From contig DOMK01000020.1 in assembly GCA_003510435.1 (NCBI GenBank), positions 1-57,522 of the forward strand: DNA of 57,522 nt, read 5' to 3'. Below are positions 6,346 to 51,494 of the stretch, piece after piece; position 1 is the stretch's first letter, and every line of letters starts with the position of its first letter. The stretch is from Candidatus Magasanikiibacteriota bacterium (lineage in GTDB: Bacteria > Patescibacteriota > Patescibacteriia > Magasanikbacterales > UBA922). Made by a program: the position numbers and the translations under genes. The notes under the pieces were generated by a model. The model had not been told where the DNA came from, did not search any database, and was given only the letters and a program-made list of their open reading frames with translations.

Positions 6346-7620
6346 ATGTCAAAAAAACAAAAATTAGAACTCCTCGCTCCCGCTGGTAGTCCAGAAAAAA
6401 TGGAATATGCTTTTGCCTATGGAGCCGATGCGGTTTACATGGGTATACCGGATTTTAGTTTGCGCGTTAGAATAAATAAATTTGATTTGGCTGACGTAAA
6501 AACTGCGATTGCCACAGCGCATAAATTAAAAAAGAAAATTTATGTGACCGCCAATATTTATGCTCATAATGAGCATCTAGAAAAATTACCGGTTTACTTA
6601 AAAAAACTAAATCAATGGCGTCCTGATGCTTTGATTATTTCTGATCTTGGGGTAATGATGCTAGCGAAAAAGTATGCGCCAAAAATTAAAATTCATGTTT
6701 CTACTCAAGCCAATGTGACTAACTGGGCGGCAGCCAAGTTTTGGGCAGACTCTGGGGCAAGTAGAATTATTTTAGGTCGGGAAGTGACGCTCAAAGAAAT
6801 AAAAGTTATTCATAAAAAATATCCCAAAATTGAATTGGAACATTTTGTTCATGGGGCTATGTGTATGAGTTATTCTGGTCGGTGTATGTTATCAGCTTGG
6901 TTAACTGGTCGGTCGGCCAATCTAGGTGATTGTGCTCAGCCTTGTCGGTGGCAGTATGGAGTAGAAAGTATCAATGCCGAATTGACTGAACCAAATCGTT
7001 CGGACATGAAAATCCCTGTAGAAGAAGATAAAAATGGTACATATATCTTTAATTCCAAAGATTTGTGTCTGATAGAATATTTAGGAGAATTGATTGATGC
7101 GGGAATTGTAAGTTTTAAAATTGAGGGTCGGGCGAAGAGTGTGGCATATCTTTCTACTATTGTTAAGGCTTATCGTGAAGGGTTAGATCCAATTAATAAT
7201 AAAAGATCAGAAGATCAGAAGATCAAAAAGAAATTAAAAAATTTAAAAAAGAAATATTTGGATAGTTTAATGACCAGAGGTTACACGACTGGATTTTTAT
7301 TTGGGAGAGATAAAGTAGAGCAAAATACTGAATTTAGTCATATCAATGGCGAAGAACAATTTGTCGGTGAAGTAGTAGACTGTGTTAAATTTAATAAAAA
7401 ATATTTAGCCATTGTTAAAGTTCATAATGTTTTGCAAGTTGGTGATAAAGTGAGAATTATGATACCTGGTGAAGAAAAAGATTTGTCAGTAACTATAAAG
7501 AAGATGTATAATAAGGATGATAAGGAAATAGAGAGTGCGCATGGAGGAACGCAGGAGTTGGTAATGGTTTTGGTAAATAAAGAAATTAAAAAGTTTAGTA
7601 TTTTATTTAAGTCAAAATAG
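6346..7620 (+). CDS. Peptidase U32 family protein (TrhP/YegQ-like)
   Basis: ELLAPAGS, GADAVYMG, HVSTQAN, FVHGAMCMSYSGRC, GDCAQPCRW, SKDLC, FKIEGR. Confidence 0.92.
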   Translation: MSKKQKLELLAPAGSPEKMEYAFAYGADAVYMGIPDFSLRVRINKFDLADVKTAIATAHKLKKKIYVTANIYAHNEHLEKLPVYLKKLNQWRPDALIISDLGVMMLAKKYAPKIKIHVSTQANVTNWAAAKFWADSGASRIILGREVTLKEIKVIHKKYPKIELEHFVHGAMCMSYSGRCMLSAWLTGRSANLGDCAQPCRWQYGVESINAELTEPNRSDMKIPVEEDKNGTYIFNSKDLCLIEYLGELIDAGIVSFKIEGRAKSVAYLSTIVKAYREGLDPINNKRSEDQKIKKKLKNLKKKYLDSLMTRGYTTGFLFGRDKVEQNTEFSHINGEEQFVGEVVDCVKFNKKYLAIVKVHNVLQVGDKVRIMIPGEEKDLSVTIKKMYNKDDKEIESAHGGTQELVMVLVNKEIKKFSILFKSK

Positions 7621-7713
7621 AACTCAAATTTCCCAAATGACCCAAATTAACCAAAATTAATTTTCGAAAATTTGTGGTAATTTTGGTGATTTGTGTTCTA
7701 TTCAATATTTAAT

Positions 7714-10280: not shown

Positions 10281-10315
10281 ATTGTTAGATTTAAGTTATG
10301 TTTACCCTTACTTCC

Positions 10316-10376
10316 ATTATACATTATTTAGACTGTCTTGTCAAGTATTGACAAAGACGACTTTTTTTGATATACT
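10316..10376. promoter_or_regulatory. Back-to-back divergent sigma70 promoters sharing a TTGTCAA-GTA-TTGACAA palindrome
   Basis: Minus strand: TTGACA(10344-10339)-17-TATAAT(10321-10316). Plus strand: TTGACA(10348-10353)-17-TATACT(10371-10376). Confidence 0.85.
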
Positions 10377-10455
10377 TGTCTGTTTAGTAAGATAGGATTA
10401 CTGTATCTAAACACAAAAAGGCTTAAATAAGCCAAAATTTTGTTCATTACAACTG

Positions 10456-10603
10456 TTCCAACGTGAAAAATAGTTTTTTGTATTTATAAAAATTATTTTT
10501 CGCGTTGGAAACAACGTGTTTACCTATATATTTAGCAATCGGTTTAGCGTTGCGAAAGCAGTCAGCGTGATGGTCACGCAGTCTGCACAGTTCTTGTTAC
10601 TGG
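10456..10603 (+). repeat. Conserved structured leader, copy 1
   Basis: TTCCAACGTGAA...TTCGCGTTGGAA hairpin, then ACAACGTGTTTA, TCGGTTT, GCAGTC-hairpin and CAG..CTGGTT; repeated at 11406-11553. Confidence 0.85.
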
Positions 10604-10661
10604 TTCCTCAACGCCGCGTCTTGCTTGCAAGCAGACACATGCGGCACGAAAGGAGGTCGTC

Positions 10662-11129
10662 ATGATGACGACCCGCTCCTCGCTCCTCGCTCTTACCCTG
10701 GCCACCATCCTCTACACCCTCGTGGGATGTGGACCCGCGCCGCAGTCCGTATACTGCGAACGATGGATGACCAGCATGTGCACGTTGCATGAGACGTGCA
10801 CCGAAGTGCCGAGCGACAACCTCGTCTCCAACATGACCTTGGCCACCATGTGGCCAGATGATTGTAAGGAGATGGAACAATCACACATCTTTCGACTGTC
10901 GAGTATCAACTACTCCACCTGCCAGATCACGTACTATACTGGCATGGGGTACAAGGTATTCCAAATGTATGATTGCAACATCGTCGGTTCCGGATACACC
11001 TGGTTAATGCGTGATATGGAGGATTGTGACTACATGCAGGACGATCAGTGCGAGGACGGCGACCCCGACACCGAGGACTTCTGCGGGGATTACTACTACC
11101 CCAACGAGTGCCTCTACCGCGTCAAGTAG
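10662..11129 (+). CDS. GC-rich Cys-rich putative lipoprotein
   Basis: SD AGGAGG at 10651-10656; signal peptide with lipobox LVGC; 10 further Cys; C-terminal CEDGDPDTEDFC. Confidence 0.7.
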   Translation: MMTTRSSLLALTLATILYTLVGCGPAPQSVYCERWMTSMCTLHETCTEVPSDNLVSNMTLATMWPDDCKEMEQSHIFRLSSINYSTCQITYYTGMGYKVFQMYDCNIVGSGYTWLMRDMEDCDYMQDDQCEDGDPDTEDFCGDYYYPNECLYRVK

Positions 11130-11287
11130 GCACGACGCGGACAACACCGCCCACACTCGTGGGGGACCGCAGGTGACCTTCCCGACTCGTTCTTTCGAGC
11201 CATTAGTTCTTTCAAAGGAGGACGAGGCGGGTGGCAGTGATGCGTTCATACAATGCGCACACTGATCCACTCGCCTCGAGGCTATGA

Positions 11288-11330
11288 CGAGATTTATCTT
11301 TATTATAAAAGAGGGGAAAGATAAATCTCG
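11288..11330. repeat. 14-bp perfect inverted repeat between the two GC-rich units
   Basis: CGAGATTTATCTTT / AAAGATAAATCTCG, preceded by the palindrome GCCTCGAGGC. Confidence 0.75.
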
Positions 11331-11405
11331 GCTTCAATTGCTTTATTCTTTTTTTAAAAAAGGATAGAGTTGAGAAGAAAAAATTAAATTTGATCTTTAA
11401 AAATT

Positions 11406-11553
11406 TTCCAACGTGAAGAATAGTTTTTATTATTTTAAAGATTGTCTTTCACGTTGGAAACAACGTGTTTAATATATATCTGGTAGTGTTTTCGTTTCGG
11501 TTTCAATATAGCAGTCTACGCGAAGGTCGCGTTGGTTGCCCAGGTTTTCTGGT
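11406..11553 (+). repeat. Conserved structured leader, copy 2
   Basis: TTCCAACGTGAA...TTCACGTTGGAA-ACAACGTGTTTA, TCGGTTT, GCAGTC-hairpin, CAG..CTGGTT. Confidence 0.85.
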
Positions 11554-11605
11554 TACGCAGAGTCGTATTGCCAAAAAGGCTTAAACGACTAAAGGAGAAC
11601 GCCCC

Positions 11606-12064
11606 ATGAATCTCGACTCTTTCATTCTTCTGGTTATTGTTCTGTTCAAGGGTGTCACCCCATCCACCCCCATAGTTCAGGAGAGTTTCAGCCTGGTGTT
11701 CTCGAACATCGAGTTCGAGGCCGGCCGGGTCACCCTGACCGAGAAGTCAAGGGCTATCCTTGACGACATCGCCAGGGAGCTACGATGCTACCCCGGTATT
11801 AAGGTGCGGGTCGAGGGGCATACCGACGGCCGGGAAGTCGTCGGCTTCAACGCCAACCTTGTTCTGTCCCAGGAGCGGGCGTTGAAGGTGCTCGTGTACT
11901 TAACGACGCAAGGTGGTATGCCTTCCTCCCTCTTAGACTATAGAGGGTATGGGGCTGAACTGCCCATATCAGGGGGATACACCACCAGTGCCCGAGAAAA
12001 AAATCGGCACGTGGAGTTCCATGTGACCGATATAAGCACGTTTCACAACGTGTGTGACGAATAG
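11606..12064 (+). CDS. GC-rich OmpA/MotB C-terminal-like peptidoglycan-binding domain protein
   Basis: IEFEAG, VEGHTD, N..LSQERA, GYGAELP, NRHVEF; hydrophobic N-terminus; SD AAGGAG at 11592-11597. Confidence 0.85.
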   Translation: MNLDSFILLVIVLFKGVTPSTPIVQESFSLVFSNIEFEAGRVTLTEKSRAILDDIARELRCYPGIKVRVEGHTDGREVVGFNANLVLSQERALKVLVYLTTQGGMPSSLLDYRGYGAELPISGGYTTSAREKNRHVEFHVTDISTFHNVCDE

Positions 12065-12289
12065 TCATACCAGCACCACGGCTGGCAACACCGTGGTCGA
12101 TGGCAGTTTCTAGTGCCATACGTTAGCCTTTGCCTGCAAAGGTAAGGAAAACTAGAAAATGGTGTGCCAGACGCGTTAAGCGTTGTGGCATCCATAACTC
12201 GACCTGCGAGACAGAACCCGGGGGGACTTGTTCCACCGCGCCTCACTCACAGGTCCCCCCGTTGTAGTTTATAATTAAATCTTTTTATT

Positions 12290-12394
12290 CCTAGAGGCTT
12301 GCCTCGAGGTTTCCTTGCAGGGAAGAGTTTGAGAAACCGTAGGTTTTTCAAAAAACACTTCCTTGATGGATACCCCGTCAGCTTGCTGCGGGGT
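12290..12394. repeat. ~105-nt element bounded by two GCTTGC-centred hairpins
   Basis: CCTAGAG-GCTTGC-CTCGAGG (12290-12309) and ACCCCGTCA-GCTTGC-TGCGGGGT (12372-12394). Confidence 0.55.
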
Positions 12395-12427
12395 CATTCA
12401 TTTGTAATTTGCAACGGAGAACATTAA

Positions 12428-12462
12428 ATAAAAAAACTCGCTTTGTTGGCGAGTTTTTATTT
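12428..12462. terminator. Bidirectional-type terminator downstream of the SemiSWEET gene
   Basis: AAAAACTCGC/GCGAGTTTTT stem with A and T tracts. Confidence 0.65.
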
Positions 12463-12471
12463 TTTGTTGTT

Positions 12472-12732
12472 TTAGATTATGGCTGTGATAGCTGTAATAA
12501 TACCCAAGATTATTCCTGGAATATTGGCAATAATAATGGGCCAGTCTTTTTTGGTTTTTAAAACACCGTATAATGTCCAGGCCGTGCAATTTATAGTAGT
12601 TATAATTGGCAAGACAATTGATCCTGGTTGACCCGCTAGATTTAATCTAATTTGATCAATGTAAGAAAAATACATGGCAACTGCCATGAAGGAAGCAAAC
12701 CAGCCGATTTTGTCTGTGATTTTTTGGTTCAT
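12472..12732 (-). CDS. SemiSWEET/PQ-loop family sugar transporter
   Basis: 86 aa with three hydrophobic helices; YIDQI, N...W..YG..K..KDWPII.AN.PG. Confidence 0.8.
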   Translation of the reverse strand: MNQKITDKIGWFASFMAVAMYFSYIDQIRLNLAGQPGSIVLPIITTINCTAWTLYGVLKTKKDWPIIIANIPGIILGIITAITAII

Positions 12733-12892: not shown

Positions 12893-14485
12893 ATGCTAAA
12901 AAAAGAAAAAACTCAGCGAAAACCAATAGTTTTAGCCATTTTGGATGGTTTTGCTTTGGCGAGTCAAAAGAATAAGGGCAATGCTATTACTCCAGAGACA
13001 GCGCCACATATTTTTTCTTATCTCAAAAAATATGCCAATTCTACTCTCAAAACTTGGGGAGAAAATGTTGGTCTATTTCCTGGTCAACAGGGTAATTCTG
13101 AAGCTGGGCATATAAATATTGGTGCGGGTAGAATTGTAAAGCAAGATTTGGTCGTAATTTCCGAAGCCATTCATGATGGGACTTTTTTCAAAAATGAGGC
13201 TTTTAAACAAGCGATTCATCATATCAAAAAATATAATACCGCTGTCCATGTGATGGGTTTGCTTACTGATGGCAATAGCGCTCATGCTTATCCCGAGCAT
13301 TTTTATGCCATGTTAGAATTATTCCGTCGGGAAGGTATAGACAAAGTTTATTTGCATTTGTTTACTGATGGCCGAGATTCGTCTCCCCATGGGGCGGCTC
13401 ATTTTCTCAAAGAATTGCGTGGACACATGTTAGGTCAAGAAAAAATCGCGACGATTATGGGTCGGTTTTATGCTATGGATAGAAACAAAATTTGGGAAAG
13501 AACCGAGAAAGCTTACGAAGCCATGGTTTTGGGCAAGGGCTGTGTAGCTCTGAGTGCCGAAGAAGCTTTGGAACAGTCATACAATCGAGGTGACACTGAT
13601 GAATATATTTGTCCGTCAGTCATTGTAGAACCCGTCTCCGCTAAAGCTTCGCCGGGCAAGAATAATAAACCTACAGGCCTAATAAAAGATAATGATGCGA
13701 TTTTTTTTGTTAATGCGAGAAGTGATCGCGCTCGGCAAATTACCAAAGCTTTTGTCCAATCAGATTTTAATAAATTGAATCCTGGTTCTTTCAAAAGAAC
13801 CAAAGTACCACAGAATACTCGCTTTGTGGCTATGACAGATTTTGGTCCAGATTTACCAGATATTTTTACAGCTTTCCCTAGCCCAGATATTGCCAATTGT
13901 TTGCCTTTAGTCGTGGATGGTAATTATAAACAATTATATATTTCGGAAACAGAAAAATATGCGCATGTCACCTACTTTATCAATGGTGGTTTTGCTGATC
14001 CACTCAATGGTGAAGAGCGAGAACTAATAAAATCACCACCAATTCGTTCTTATGCTGATAAGCCAGAGATGAATACCAAATTAATGGTAGAAAAAATTGT
14101 AAAATATTTAAATACTGGTAAATATAATTTTATTTGTGTTAATTTTCCCAATACTGATATGGTAGGTCATACGGGAGATTTAATCGCTGCCAAAGAAGCG
14201 GTTTTAGTCGTTGATAATGCAGTCGCCAAAATTGTGGAAACAGTTTTAAAATTAGACGGGCAAATGTTAATCACGGCTGATCACGGCAATGCGGATGAAA
14301 TGATAAATGAAAAGACTGGAGAAATAATGACTGAACACACCAAGAATCCAGTGCCATTTATTTTAGTGAAAAAAGGTAAGAAAACAAAAATGAAAAATGG
14401 TATTTTGGCGGATGTGGCGCCAACACTTTTGAAATTGATGGAAATAAAACAGCCGAAAGAAATGAGTGGTAAAGCGTTGCTATAA
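12893..14485 (+). CDS. gpmI: 2,3-bisphosphoglycerate-independent phosphoglycerate mutase, copy 1
   Basis: LAILDG, GNSEAGH, DGRD, GRFYAMDR, ETEKYAHVT, DMVGHTG, DHGNA. Confidence 0.93.
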   Translation: MLKKEKTQRKPIVLAILDGFALASQKNKGNAITPETAPHIFSYLKKYANSTLKTWGENVGLFPGQQGNSEAGHINIGAGRIVKQDLVVISEAIHDGTFFKNEAFKQAIHHIKKYNTAVHVMGLLTDGNSAHAYPEHFYAMLELFRREGIDKVYLHLFTDGRDSSPHGAAHFLKELRGHMLGQEKIATIMGRFYAMDRNKIWERTEKAYEAMVLGKGCVALSAEEALEQSYNRGDTDEYICPSVIVEPVSAKASPGKNNKPTGLIKDNDAIFFVNARSDRARQITKAFVQSDFNKLNPGSFKRTKVPQNTRFVAMTDFGPDLPDIFTAFPSPDIANCLPLVVDGNYKQLYISETEKYAHVTYFINGGFADPLNGEERELIKSPPIRSYADKPEMNTKLMVEKIVKYLNTGKYNFICVNFPNTDMVGHTGDLIAAKEAVLVVDNAVAKIVETVLKLDGQMLITADHGNADEMINEKTGEIMTEHTKNPVPFILVKKGKKTKMKNGILADVAPTLLKLMEIKQPKEMSGKALL

Positions 14486-14595
14486 TTTACGAATTTCCAA
14501 TTATCAATTTTCAAAAGCATTGAAAATTGTAAATTACTAAATTGAAATTTAAATCTATCCTTTATTGTTTTCAAATTTCGAATTTTTTATAAGTT

Positions 14596-16176
14596 ATGTC
14601 CAATAAAAATAAACCCGTAGTCTTAGCCATATTAGATGGTTGGGGAATTGCTCCAGATGGAGAAGGGAATGCGATTACCCGAGCCAAGACTCCCAATTTC
14701 AACAAATTTGTTCGAGAGTATCCAGTCATGACTCTTCATGCTTCGGGCAATGAAGTTGGTCTTATGTTTGGTCAAATGGGAAATTCTGAAGTTGGGCATT
14801 TAAATATTGGGGCGGGCCGAGTTTATTACCAATCATTACCACGAATTAATCATCATATTAATGATGAAAGTTTTTTTATTAATAAAGCTTTTTTGAGGGC
14901 GGCTGAACAAGTGAAAAAAAATGATTCTGCTTTGCACATTATTGGTCTTATTAGTCCGGGCAATGTACACTCTAGTCAAGATCATTGTTTTGCTTTGCTT
15001 GATTTTGCCAAAAGACAGAAAATAAAAAAAGTTTATATTCATGTTATTTTGGATGGTCGAGATTGTATCTATAATTCGGGAATTGATTTTGTTAAAGAAT
15101 TGCAAAAGAAAATAAAAGAATATCATCGTGGAGAAATTGCTTCTATCTCTGGTCGTTTTTTTGCTATGGACAGAGACAATCGTTGGGATAGAACAGAAAA
15201 AGCTTACAATGCCATGGCCATGGGGGTAGCAGCCAAATATTTTAAAGATCCAATTGATGCGATTGAAGAATCTTATAAACGAGAAGTTTATGATGAAGAA
15301 TTTGTACCAGTAGTAATAGGAAAAGAAGGTAAACCAACGGCCATTGTAAAAAATGGTGATGCTTGCATATTTTTTAATTTTCGTTCAGATCGAGTGCGTC
15401 AATTGACCAAAGCGTTTGTGTTGCCTGGTTTTAATAAATTTAAAAGAGAATATATTAAGGACCTGTGTTTTGTGACTATGACAGAATATGAAAAAGAATT
15501 ACCAATTGTGGTGGCTTATGGTCCACAAGTAGTACACAATTCTTTGGCTGAGACGATTAGTAAAGCGGGATTAAAACAGTATCATGTGGCCGAAACTACC
15601 AAGTATGCTCATATTACATATTTTCTTAATGGTACAGTGGAGGATCCTTTTCCTGGTGAAGATAGAAAAATTGTTTCATCAGTCATGGTATCATCTTATG
15701 ACCAAGCGCCAGAAATGTCGGCTGGAGAAATTACCAAGGAAGTAATCAAAGCGATTGAATCAGAAAAGTATGATGCTATTATGTTAAATTATGCCAATGT
15801 TGATATGGTGGGACATACTGGTAAAATGAAGGCCACTGTTGAAGCTTGTGAAATGGTAGACAAATGTTTGGGAGCAGTGGCTGAGCATGTGTTGGCAAAA
15901 AATGGTGTTTTACTCATTACCGCTGATCATGGTAATGCTGAAGAAGTAAAAAATTTGCAAACTGGAGCCATTGATAAAGAACATAGCACCAATCCAGTTC
16001 CTTTTATAATTATTAGTAATCCATTGCGTGGTCAAGCTGGTCCGACTGGGGATCCACCGGAGGGTGATCTTAGTTTGATGCCACCAGTAGGAATGCTGGG
16101 TGATGTCGCACCGACTATGCTTTCTATTATGGGAGTAGAAGTGCCGAAGGAGATGACGGGAAGAACGTTGTTGTAA
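14596..16176 (+). CDS. gpmI: 2,3-bisphosphoglycerate-independent phosphoglycerate mutase, copy 2
   Basis: LAILDGWG, QMGNSEVGH, DGRD, GRFFAMDRD, NFRSDR, DMVGHTG, DHGNAE. Confidence 0.95.
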   Translation: MSNKNKPVVLAILDGWGIAPDGEGNAITRAKTPNFNKFVREYPVMTLHASGNEVGLMFGQMGNSEVGHLNIGAGRVYYQSLPRINHHINDESFFINKAFLRAAEQVKKNDSALHIIGLISPGNVHSSQDHCFALLDFAKRQKIKKVYIHVILDGRDCIYNSGIDFVKELQKKIKEYHRGEIASISGRFFAMDRDNRWDRTEKAYNAMAMGVAAKYFKDPIDAIEESYKREVYDEEFVPVVIGKEGKPTAIVKNGDACIFFNFRSDRVRQLTKAFVLPGFNKFKREYIKDLCFVTMTEYEKELPIVVAYGPQVVHNSLAETISKAGLKQYHVAETTKYAHITYFLNGTVEDPFPGEDRKIVSSVMVSSYDQAPEMSAGEITKEVIKAIESEKYDAIMLNYANVDMVGHTGKMKATVEACEMVDKCLGAVAEHVLAKNGVLLITADHGNAEEVKNLQTGAIDKEHSTNPVPFIIISNPLRGQAGPTGDPPEGDLSLMPPVGMLGDVAPTMLSIMGVEVPKEMTGRTLL

Positions 16177-16299
16177 TTTACAAATTTTCATAATTTTCAA
16201 TTTTCAAACAGTAATTATTTTTTTGAAAATTGGTAAATTAGTAAATTGAAATTTAAAAACCATGGTTTTATCCACGGTTTTTTATTTTATATTTTAACT

Positions 16300-17619: not shown

Positions 17620-18102
17620 CTACTGATATACGGATTATCCGGATCAACGGATATTGTTTGGTATCTAATTAGTTTGAAGTATGATGAGGGTAAATTTACT
17701 TCATGAAGAATTATCATATAAAGTTCGTGGTATATTGTATGAAGTTCATAATGAACTTGGTTCTTATCGTAATGAGAAACAATATTGTGATAAGATAGAG
17801 TTTGGATTGAAAGAAAAAGGTCTGAAGTATGAACGTGAAAAGATATTATTACCTAGTTTTGATGGTGAACAAAAAGGTAGAAATAGAATAGATTTTATTG
17901 TGGAAGATAAAATAATTATTGAAGTCAAAGTTGTTCCAAGTTTTTCTCCAAATGATTTTAAACAATGTAAAAGATATTTAGTCAGTAGTAATAAAGAGCT
18001 TTGTTTATTAGTAAATTTTGGATTAAAATCCTGTGTTATTAAAAGAATTTTAAACCCGGATTTGTTAAATCAGTAGATCCGGATAATCAGTAATCTGTAG
18101 AT
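17620..18102. mobile_element. Candidate cassette: GxxExxY gene between inverted micro-repeat arms
   Basis: GATTATCCGGATC (17633-17645) and GATCCGGATAATC (18076-18088) form a perfect 13-bp inverted repeat, each within ACGGAT/ACTGAT-type units. Confidence 0.5.
17681..18076 (+). CDS. GxxExxY family protein (PD-(D/E)XK-like nuclease fold)
   Basis: EVHNELG..RNEKQY, RIDFIVEDKIIIEVK, Q...YL, LLVNFG; 131 aa. Confidence 0.88.
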   Translation: MMRVNLLHEELSYKVRGILYEVHNELGSYRNEKQYCDKIEFGLKEKGLKYEREKILLPSFDGEQKGRNRIDFIVEDKIIIEVKVVPSFSPNDFKQCKRYLVSSNKELCLLVNFGLKSCVIKRILNPDLLNQ

Positions 18103-32537: not shown

Positions 32538-32964
32538 TTCATTACATAGTAGATGATCGTCCGCCGAATCCGTCAGCTGACGGAGAAGGTGGAAGGAAAG
32601 TCCGAACATTCACCTGGTGCAAATCAGGTAACAGAGTAGCGGGTAACTCCCGTCGGTCGTAAGACTAGAGGTGCGAGCAGTGACGCCGAGACGCGAAAGT
32701 GTTGAGGCATCATGTAAAAGCGCAAGCTTTTTACATGATGAACTCTGATAGTGATATTAGAGGTGAAACGGCAAAATCCTTACTTGAATGAAAGAACAGC
32801 CTTTCGATTCACTTCGTTCGCTTAGAGTAAACTAATTGTTAGATACTTTGAGTGAATGAAGTGCAATTTGATTGGAAAAGTTAGTTCGCTAGACCCAGCT
32901 GGTAACAGCCTGGGCAGATAAATGATCGTCCTAGACAAAATTCGGCTTATAGCTATGTAATGAA
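32538..32964 (+). ncRNA. rnpB: RNase P RNA
   Basis: P1 TTCATTACATAG/CTATGTAATGAA; P2 GATGATCG repeated pattern; AGGAAAGTCCG; ACAAAATTCGGCTTAT near the 3' end. Confidence 0.92.
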
Positions 32965-33091
32965 TAATAAGAAATTCCCTGAAAATGGGGATTTTTTATT
33001 TGTTCTGTTAGTTTGACTTATGGTAGTTTTTTAGCTAAAATATAAAGTAATAAGGTATTATTCCTTATTCTTTACTCCTTATTCCATTTTT

Positions 33092-50726: not shown

Positions 50727-51494
50727 TTACTCAAAATATTCACTTTTTGTGTCTTGTTTAATTATATTTATTTTTGGACCAGGCCATTTTTTTATTTCCA
50801 AAGCATTTTCGGCTGCATTTACTTGGGCTTCTTGTTTGCTACTACCATGCCCTTCGGCAATTTTTTCTTTGTCCAAATAAACTCCGACAATAAATTCTTT
50901 GGCATGATCAGGACCGTCTTCTTGGATAACTTTGTAAGTAGGAGTAATGCCAATAATTTCTTGAGCTGATTCTTGAAATCTAGATTTTGGATCCATCCAA
51001 AGACCTTTCTCCAATACTTCTGGCAGTTTAGAAATAAACCATCTTAAAATAAATTGTTTGGCCATATCCCAACCTTGATCAACATAGATAGCTCCAATCA
51101 ATGATTCCATTACTTTGGCTAGAATATATTCTCTGGCTTTAGTGCCAGCGTCTTTGGATTCACCATGACTTAAGAATAAGTATGGCTCCATATCAATTTC
51201 ACTGGCAATTTGGGCACACATTTTGGCGTTTACCAAGGCGGCTCGCCAATTGGTCAATTCACCTTCAGGATTTTGATAGTTTTCAAATAAATGTTCAGTA
51301 ATAACTAGTTCTAGTACAGCATCACCCAAAAATTCTAATCGTTCATTATGTCCCAAAGCAAAATCACGATTTTCATTTAGATAAGAACGATGAACCAAGG
51401 CTTGGACAATATAATTGGAATTATTAAATTTTATTCCAATTCTGTCTTCAAGGTTTTTAAATTTTTTTTCTTTGTATTGTTCAACGATTTGCAT
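50727..51494 (-). CDS. rnc: Ribonuclease III
   Basis: HRSY.NE, NERLEFLGDAVLE, ESLIGAIY.D, dsRBD DPKSR.QE, G.G.SK.EA...AA. Confidence 0.97.
   Translation of the reverse strand: MQIVEQYKEKKFKNLEDRIGIKFNNSNYIVQALVHRSYLNENRDFALGHNERLEFLGDAVLELVITEHLFENYQNPEGELTNWRAALVNAKMCAQIASEIDMEPYLFLSHGESKDAGTKAREYILAKVMESLIGAIYVDQGWDMAKQFILRWFISKLPEVLEKGLWMDPKSRFQESAQEIIGITPTYKVIQEDGPDHAKEFIVGVYLDKEKIAEGHGSSKQEAQVNAAENALEIKKWPGPKINIIKQDTKSEYFE

Follow-up and report, generated by a model that had tools for sequence, protein, structure and literature searches.

A covarying leader hairpin in front of GC-rich orphan envelope genes of Candidatus Magasanikbacteria

We analyzed contig DOMK01000020.1 (assembly GCA_003510435.1; 57,522 nt, 33.8% GC; hereafter the window, meaning this whole stretch) from Candidatus Magasanikbacteria, a member of the candidate phyla radiation (CPR), and found at 10456-12262 two tandem gene units on the plus strand. 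Each unit runs from a ~55-nt AT-rich hairpin through a partly conserved 5′ untranslated region (UTR), a Shine-Dalgarno (SD) sequence and a GC-rich open reading frame (ORF) to a structured 3′ UTR. The hairpin belongs to a covarying family that recurs in other genomes and whose base-pairing favors one strand. We put at about an even chance the reading that it works in cis, as an RNA leader element, for a gene class specific to this lineage.

Results

Two paralogous leaders

The leaders of units 1 and 2 are 84% alike over 92 nt (10440-10531 against 11390-11479), with weaker similarity running onward and fading by about 10600/11555. The 20-mer CGTTGGAAACAACGTGTTTA occurs in exactly two copies in the window, where chance predicts 0. 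Folded as plus-strand RNA, hairpins 1 and 2 reached -27.6 and -26.8 kcal/mol (z-scores -7.0 and -7.6), compared with -20.0 and -17.1 kcal/mol on the minus strand, and a covariance model scored hairpin 1 at 72.9 bits on the plus strand against 51.1 bits on the minus strand. The motif CAACGYG was found three times in each leader, and 9 of the 12 copies in the window fall inside the two-unit island. Further into the 5′ UTR, a second stem shows compensatory changes between the units (GCGTGA-TGG-TCACGC against ACGCGA-AGG-TCGCGT). Covariance models R1 and R2 recovered just these two hairpin copies from the window and none 3′ of ORF2. Rfam 15 gave no gathering-level match in the island; an E-value scan returned only sub-threshold matches to generic hairpins of the miRNA-precursor kind.

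A preliminary description of this DNA had reported a two-unit array of mutually unrelated genes, each with a repeated leader, a hairpin better paired on the top strand through G.T pairs, three copies of CAACGTG, a switch to high GC and back, and a strong SD unlike most genes here, beside an AbiE toxin-antitoxin pair and with no integrase, transposase or reverse transcriptase (RT) adjacent. All of these features are present as described, and the leader repeat proved wider than had been noted.

The hairpin family in other genomes

We compared the window with 80 related loci (labeled L0xx) and found members of the hairpin family in three other Magasanikbacteria. A regular-expression scan identified a hairpin in L055 (Gw_Bodden_bin_243) that shares its stem base, CCAACGUG/CGCGUUGG, with the window copies but not its interior, and that stands on the coding strand immediately ahead of a GC-rich ORF for a 48-aa membrane peptide. 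A model of the two window copies and L055 independently found L017:16283-16337(-) with an E-value of 0.028, 37 nt 5′ of a GC-rich ORF for a 141-aa Cys-rich protein, and L047 carries a hairpin orthologous to that of L017. These three occupy a different intergenic slot, DHH-ValRS, with unrelated GC-rich ORFs directly 3′. When 1.46 Mb was scanned for CAAC...GTTG hairpins of at least 15 pairs, exactly 4 were returned, all on the coding strand and 5′ of GC-rich ORFs; a search of 1.43 Mb with the five-sequence model R2 added no member to the family. In L017, L047 and L055, the hairpin is preceded by a TTGACA-17-TAnnnT promoter of the same orientation and, with window unit 1 counted, a near-consensus promoter stands 5′ of four of the five sequenced copies.

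Between L017 and L047, the flanks of the DHH-ValRS slot are 77-82% identical and the promoter plus leader 75-85%, whereas the ORFs have no detectable similarity. GC-rich inserts occupy this slot in about 10 of 53 relatives. The stretches L017:15645-16636, L047:15584-16438 and L055:15569-16244 (-) have their promoter, flanks and a ~150-nt leader in common and carry unrelated GC-rich ORFs; in that leader, a covarying small stem is followed by ACCCAUUUCAAAAGAGCGUUGUU and then by the long hairpin. In all three, the leader segment GAGCGUUGUU is complementary to ACAACGCUC, a 3′ UTR segment that immediately precedes the terminator, and covariation of this pairing is seen in L055. Convincing long-range 5′-3′ UTR pairing was not found in the window units, which gave just unconvincing matches of 9-10 bp. 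In most relatives the slot is empty, at 150-270 bp. In the window, it holds a PDDEXK_3 nuclease gene (17681-18076), and a PDDEXK homologue occurs there otherwise in L078 only.

The contigs of four DNA runs of the source study were compared with 10300-12600 at a likeness of at least 80%, and a third hairpin copy was found, on a contig of different depth (36.5 against 13.4) from a co-occurring genome. There, the hairpin alone is alike and unrelated sequence follows. As a lead only, that genome has TTGACA-17-TATACT, then CCAACGCG-33 nt-CGCGTTGG, 5′ of a GC-rich gene, and a small hairpin, CACCCA-TACAGTG-TGGGTG, 3′ of the long one. Nothing else in the contigs of these four runs resembled the leader, UTRs or ORFs. 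Leaders confined to two copies had been named in the preliminary description as a result that would tell against it; the source metagenomes, with one further hairpin, come close to this, while the family in three other Magasanikbacteria extends the leader beyond the locus. Exact-pattern scans of genome, metagenome and viral contigs gave no match to leader or hairpin, a weak negative as the window's own contig was not returned either, and blastn of the island against a phage collection gave no match.

Covariation and strand asymmetry

Across the five copies, the hairpin forms a 23-pair helix that is 94.7% paired, in which 11 pairs have changed on both sides and one wobble, G18.U40, is invariant. 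None of 500 column shuffles matched the observed helix values, and slid controls paired at ~44%. Individual stems comprise 21-24 continuous pairs, including G.U wobbles, with at most one mismatch. The five copies hold 19 G.U pairs on the coding strand and 0 on the other. Consistent with this, the coding strand folded at -26 to -29 kcal/mol against -14 to -22 kcal/mol for the other strand (7-14 better), and its covariance-model scores were 20-39 bits higher. The CAACGTG half-site has been altered with pairing kept, to CAACAUG in L017 and CAGCCUG in L047. The ends of the helix also vary, from TTCCAAC/GTTGGAA in the window to CATCAAC/GTTGGTG in L017 and CCAGC/GCTGG in L047, where AAC/GTT is lost. 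The wobbles on one strand, the covariation and the changed half-site together indicate that the hairpin acts as a one-strand structure (RNA or top-strand single-stranded DNA, ssDNA) and not as a duplex operator. A transcript would be the simplest reading of such a structure, because promoters lie upstream in the same orientation and an ORF lies downstream.

GC-rich, SD-led genes for predicted envelope proteins

GC content is 0.55-0.65 within each unit and 0.19-0.30 between and after the units, and no other island in the 57.5-kb window reaches 48% GC, RNase P RNA aside. GC at third codon positions (GC3), given for both ORFs in Table 1, is 0.19-0.33 in 37 host proxy genes. An SD core was found upstream of 3 of 39 proxy genes, and ORF1 and ORF2 are two of these 3. 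The SD-poor genes of the window are consistent with one subgroup of Parcubacteria in which the anti-SD motif is missing (PMC9297842).

The ORF1 product begins with a signal sequence with a lipobox-like LVGC, has 14 Cys and is lipoprotein-like. It has no Pfam match and no credible homologue among 5.8 billion clusters/1.84 billion representatives; phmmer matches to giant repeat proteins (P0003-P0005) were spurious, arising from the summation of tandem-repeat scores. Its AlphaFold model, with a pLDDT of 43, was unusable. The ORF2 product combines an N-terminal hydrophobic anchor with an OmpA-type (peptidoglycan-binding) domain, residues 37-134 matching PF00691 at 58.4 bits (gathering cut-off 27.2, E 9.5e-16), and it likewise has no close relative or credible homologue in the same large protein collections. 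The two are unrelated (BLASTP E 0.054 over 18 residues). Both are orphan genes for predicted cell-envelope proteins.

Similar SD-led GC-rich ORFs are present in many of the 80 related loci. In the close pair L074/L081, the cassette gene is vertically inherited yet fast diverging.

Expression in situ

In the metatranscriptome contigs of the same study, only the ORF1 interior and RNase P RNA were recovered from window positions 7300-46000. The ORF1 interior (10675-10926) was found at 100% identity in two samples, at depths of 2.4 and 5.2, as the only protein-coding transcript recovered from about 39 kb; enolase, both cofactor-independent phosphoglycerate mutases (iPGMs), the tRNA synthetases and ORF2 were not recovered in these contigs, and a third metatranscriptome sample contained no transcripts of the organism. 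ORF1 is an active gene and is probably highly expressed in the aquifer. RNase P RNA (32541-32965) reached a depth of 140 in run X7 and serves as a positive control for the organism's RNA.

A variable slot between enolase and iPGM

Enolase, iPGM and tRNA synthetase genes flank the island, and abiEii-abiEi, a toxin-antitoxin pair of mobile type on the minus strand, lies directly upstream of unit 1. The enolase-iPGM1 interval of the window spans 3.9 kb and contains abiEii-abiEi (-), both units and the SemiSWEET gene. In the 80 related loci, enolase is mostly followed by iPGM1-iPGM2 after a gap of roughly 10-250 bp, and about ten have larger, mutually differing inserts. AbiE, ORF1, ORF2, SemiSWEET and the leader were found in none of the 80, and a BLAST of leaders and trailers against these enolase loci gave no leader match. 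The interval being short in most relatives, its inserts differing and none of them containing the island, we read it from these comparisons as a variable slot, and the island as specific to the window's lineage. Within the genome collection, Candidatus Magasanikbacteria GW2011_GWC2_37_14 is the nearest relative (enolase identity 89%), and contigs identical to the window stem from a single groundwater study.

The same slot holds other inserts elsewhere. A distant relative has a 1065-bp island there (L090:11246-12310; 57% GC in a locus background of 44%) with an SD-led 282-aa ORF on the minus strand, and a second GC-rich island in its DHH-ValRS slot. The closest available relative has a 630-bp AT-rich insert (L011:11231-11859), which carries a perfect TTGACA-17-TATAAT promoter and a short ORF that resembles nothing in the island described here.

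Feature map and neighboring observations

Table 1. Features of the two units and their surroundings (window coordinates)
Feature	Position	Strand	Remarks
abiE promoter, divergent from unit 1 promoter	10316-10344	-	
Sigma70-type promoter, near-consensus TTGACA-17-TATACT with TG extension	10348..10376	+	11/12 matches; ~72 nt 5′ of hairpin 1
Small stem-loop GGCTTAAATAAGCC in leader, between promoter and hairpin 1	10420..10433	+	
Leader hairpin 1	10456..10510	+	~23 bp, AT-rich; stem base CCAACGUG/CGCGUUGG; 2 G.U on + only
7-4-7 palindrome CGCGTTG-GAAA-CAACGTG, then TTTA	10503..10522	+	Hairpin 1 3′ arm plus third CAACGTG; may form an alternative small hairpin
Weak promoter-like TTGGAA-16-TATATT	10505-10532	+	9/12; overlapped by the 10503..10522 palindrome
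Unit 1 5′ UTR stem-loop GCAGUC-A-GCGUGA-UGG-UCACGC-A-GUCUGC	10558..10586	+	Compensatory changes vs unit 2
SD AAGGAGG	10650..10656	+	5 nt 5′ of ORF1 ATG
ORF1, 155 aa	10662..11129	+	Orphan; GC3 0.77; transcribed in situ
Unit 1 structured GC-rich 3′ UTR	11130..11329	+	z -6.9
13-bp AT-rich hairpin closing unit 1 3′ UTR	11289-11329	+	No immediate U-tract
Leader hairpin 2, paralogue of hairpin 1	11406..11459	+	4 G.U on + only; no recognizable promoter upstream
Perfect 7-4-7 palindrome CACGTTG-GAAA-CAACGTG, then TTTA	11452..11471	+	Scored terminator-like
Unit 2 5′ UTR stem-loop GCAGUC-U-ACGCGA-AGG-UCGCGU-U-GGUUGC	11511..11539	+	Conserved
SD AAGGAG	11592..11597	+	8 nt 5′ of ORF2 ATG
ORF2, 152 aa	11606..12064	+	OmpA-type domain; GC3 0.68
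Unit 2 structured GC-rich 3′ UTR	12065..12262	+	z -8.2 (for 12062-12470)
Multicopy short repeat, outside cassette	12274..12403	.	~10x local depth in metagenome
Bidirectional intrinsic terminator, common to island and SemiSWEET gene	12432..12458	.	
SemiSWEET gene	12472-12732	-	
RNase III gene rnc (Ribonuclease_3 + dsrm)	50727-51494	-	Pfam annotation

The repeat at 12274-12403 is GC-moderate and has variant copies in the source metagenomes; its 34-nt core (12369-12402) recurs at L058:106-139 with 94% identity. Several public assemblies end or diverge at 12286-12410 (12286, 12303, 12400-12410) because of this multicopy repeat. Two tandem paralogous iPGM genes, ~40% identical, come after enolase both in the window (12893-16176) and in nearly all of the 80 Magasanikbacteria loci; in the window, 75% similarity also links the stretches just 3′ of the two copies (14438-14553 and 16129-16257). 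The gap between enolase and the peptidase U32 gene contains, at 7616-7702, an ~88-nt imperfect palindrome that is ~80% identical to its own reverse complement.

Discussion

A candidate RNA leader element

On our preferred reading, each gene of the islet would carry a paralogous copy of the ~55-nt AT-rich hairpin, acting in cis in its mRNA leader. Transcription would start at the promoter at 10348-10376 and read through hairpin 1; unit 2 would be transcribed either by polymerases that read on from unit 1 or from the weak TTGGAA site within the array. The 21-24-bp duplex would be a processing or stability element, most economically one cut by the RNase III whose gene lies at 50727-51494. Such a cut would create the mature 5′ end and so determine how long this highly structured, SD-dependent mRNA lasts and how well it is translated; in the tandem array, it would also part the two cistrons from each other. 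Taken alone, this RNase III detail is possible but doubtful. Genes for RNase III and NusB are annotated by Pfam inside the window, and the stems of 21-24 pairs provide the double-stranded RNA (dsRNA) of at least about 20 bp expected of an RNase III substrate in an rnc-encoding organism. The two leaders may have arisen by local duplication or by the arrival of two cassettes of the same family, with no dedicated capture enzyme. The genes served would, on our best reading, be a class of GC-rich, SD-dependent orphans for small anchored or secreted envelope proteins, held in variable slots between housekeeping genes.

Several observations weigh against this reading. No recognizable promoter lies upstream of hairpin 2. 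The leader was found in no RNA run, so that transcription of the hairpin is deduced and not seen, and the metatranscriptome consists of assembled contigs only, at depths of 2-5. Attenuation, protein binding or ssDNA transactions would fit the strand asymmetry equally well, and cleavage by RNase III is only predicted. Finally, most other GC-rich SD-led ORFs in relatives are without the long hairpin, so the gene class as a whole does not require it.

Competing explanations

A duplex-DNA operator and promoter module, in which a dimeric factor would bind CAACGTG half-sites overlapping TTGGAA-16/17-TATATT and govern a small regulon, had been the alternative in the preliminary description. The motif is concentrated in the leaders, with three CAACGYG in each and 9 of the 12 window copies in the island; TTGGAA-16-TATATT scores 9/12 in unit 1, and an 18-bp palindrome overlaps its -35 hexamer. 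However, all 19 wobbles lie on one strand and 0 on the other, 11 pairs covary while the interior sequence changes freely, and the half-site is altered in L017 and lost in L047 with pairing kept. The -10 hexamer in unit 2 is a poor TATATC at 15 nt, and the consensus promoters stand upstream of the hairpins, not within them. As the wobbles all fall on the coding strand and the stem covaries, an RNA-level element is favored and an operator is very improbable. A transcription attenuator, in which the 3′ arm would pair either with the 5′ arm or with the downstream CAACGUG (a 7-bp GAAA-tetraloop hairpin plus UUUA) and a factor on the long hairpin would switch termination, draws on the 7-4-7 palindrome with TTTA, kept exactly in both units (terminator-like in unit 2), on the small hairpin trailing the long one in the co-occurring genome, and on the recovery of ORF1 RNA but not ORF2 RNA. 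Against it, the long hairpin, at about -27 kcal/mol, is far stabler and emerges earlier from the polymerase, which would leave the small hairpin little chance to form; the U-tract (UUUAAUAU or UUUACCUA) is poor; and L017, L047 and L055 have no third copy beside the hairpin. We regard attenuation as unlikely. AbiEi was rejected as a binding partner of the hairpin, since the hairpins of L017, L047 and L055 have no AbiE nearby.

The platform for gene capture or expression proposed in the preliminary description stood in part. A standard AT-rich module does precede unrelated GC-rich genes, in three other species and the co-occurring genome as well as here; a capture machine was not found, there being no recombinase, attC-type structure or terminal hairpin in the window and no joints in the four DNA runs. 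Under capture, the hairpin would be an ssDNA recombination or docking site (attC-like or an HUH target); an enzyme whose gene lies elsewhere would insert or swap the GC-rich cargo at the 3′ base of the hairpin. Leader similarity does stop at or just after the 3′ end of the hairpin in three comparisons (L017 versus L047, each of these versus L055, and the window versus the third copy), unrelated ORFs lie between conserved flanks in L017/L047, and two intergenic slots are repeatedly filled with differing GC-rich cassettes. Strand-specific folding is also expected of an ssDNA site, and the stem base CCAAC/GTTGG has what we take to be a resemblance to the AAC/GTT core of attC. Yet Pfam lists for 662-57522 contain no integrase, transposase, HUH enzyme or RT, and the helix is continuous, with neither an unpaired central spacer nor extrahelical bases. 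The coding strand folds better, unlike in attC, where the bottom strand is used; ORF2 has no hairpin after it; and the CAAC base is lost in L047 (CCAGC/GCTGG). Units 1 and 2 remain similar for ~90 nt beyond the hairpin, so their junction is not a fixed one. The search for empty sites and circles that had been suggested gave no excision, empty-site or circle joints, and no polymorphism, in the contigs of the four DNA runs. Moreover, flanking genes at ~80% nucleotide identity imply saturated neutral sites, so that fast-evolving surface-protein genes could become unrecognizable without any swap, and the "unrelated ORFs" could reflect rapid divergence. We therefore judge capture of this kind rather improbable. 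We hold equally small the chance of an ORF-level cassette system of Magasanikbacteria, perhaps of other Patescibacteria, in which a conserved AT-rich leader, closed by the strand-specific hairpin, would be the 5′ docking boundary and GC-rich, SD-dependent orphan genes, each bringing structured UTRs and a terminator of its own, would be added, exchanged and lined up in tandem at intergenic hot spots; that the hairpin would there be a recombination or targeting site (ssDNA or RNA) for some further enzyme is no more probable. If true, such a system would be new for Magasanikbacteria/Patescibacteria.

Ordinary recent horizontal acquisition would make the island a moron-like foreign GC-rich fragment, its regulatory region locally duplicated and the hairpin a leftover terminator or stabilizer. 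The island is in none of the 80 related loci, has an atypical composition with its own promoter and terminators, and adjoins the mobile-type AbiE pair. Very large protein collections, however, contain no homologue of either ORF. The AT-rich leader has a host-like composition and is a member of a hairpin family that covaries across species, no phage or plasmid matches were found, and ORF1 is among the region's best-recovered transcripts in situ. This explanation seems to us distinctly improbable. The term "foreign", given to the genes in the preliminary description, is likewise doubtful: they have no homologue, they do not look like a recent import from sampled GC-rich bacteria, and the leader is native. 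Retrons, diversity-generating retroelements, group II introns and IS200/IS605 were rejected, as there is no RT or TnpA gene in 662-57522 and no Rfam match.

Comparison with known systems

Like integrons and clusters of attC sites lacking integron integrases (CALINs), the island is a tandem, one-orientation array of unrelated ORFs with ~55-nt imperfect palindromes that end in ...CAAC/GTTG.... The R''/R' cores of attC have the consensus RYYYAAC/GTTRRRY, which the window hairpin ends match at 6 of 7 positions on each side. In a folded attC site, the central spacer is unpaired, 2-3 bases are extrahelical and the bottom strand serves as substrate (PMC2727003). The array here differs in having no IntI, no central spacer or extrahelical bases and a top strand that folds better; it also has no site after the last ORF, possesses its own SDs, UTRs and terminators, and is conserved beyond the hairpin. 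No Phage_integrase or other recombinase was found in 662-57522 (an integrase is optional for CALINs), and the window hairpins show neither the attC structure nor a site after the last cassette.

The PeSL cassettes of T4-type phages place promoter and stem-loop modules before small ORFans in hyperplastic regions; their repeats provide homology for the modular shuffling of unrelated ORFs, and the stem-loop is a proven terminator (PMC2839356, PMC4122927). A short conserved promoter plus stem-loop repeated in front of orphan genes is common to both. PeSL modules, however, reside in phage genomes, whereas the element here is chromosomal and its hairpin sits in the 5′ leader, 3′ of a consensus promoter; the four DNA runs showed neither mini-circle nor deletion joints. 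Promoter and hairpin are both present in unit 1; unit 2 has a weak promoter-like site only, and the long hairpin is not followed by a U-tract. Phage morons and small genomic islets are also self-contained promoter-ORF-terminator units of odd composition between conserved genes. Here, in contrast, there is no prophage context, the leader is host-like and conserved across species, and the cargo has no identifiable donor; the flanks are housekeeping genes, and phage and viral collections gave no match.

RNase III processing hairpins occur in phage T7 early mRNA, where the sites have internal loops, and in bacterial leaders such as those of rnc and pnp. The hairpins here resemble them in having dsRNA stems of ~two helical turns that occupy leaders and the gaps between cistrons, in a host that encodes RNase III; they differ from the T7 sites in being near-perfect stems with G.U pairs, and their cleavage is so far a prediction. 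Long-range 5′-3′ pairing characterizes hok-type type I toxin mRNAs. The leader-3′ UTR pairing of L017, L047 and L055, and the 48-aa membrane peptide of L055, are alike in this respect; the window ORFs, of 152-155 aa, have no convincing 5′-3′ pairing, and no antisense RNA was found.

Implications

The islet consists of self-contained accessory gene units of a known sort; the conserved leader RNA motif is new. We found no paper on GC-rich SD-dependent orphan cassettes or on this hairpin in CPR bacteria. The locus defines a cis-acting element whose ~55-nt hairpin covaries and keeps one G.U pair invariant. It is tied to GC-rich, SD-dependent orphan envelope genes in AT-rich, SD-poor genomes, and the covariance model built here can be used over all Patescibacteria genomes to map the class. 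CPR bacteria (Patescibacteria) are uncultured, and their gene regulation is little understood. If the hairpin controls processing or stability, it would be a new regulatory RNA motif for the phylum; if it instead marks a cargo boundary, it would represent a new route of cell-surface diversification in ultra-small symbionts.

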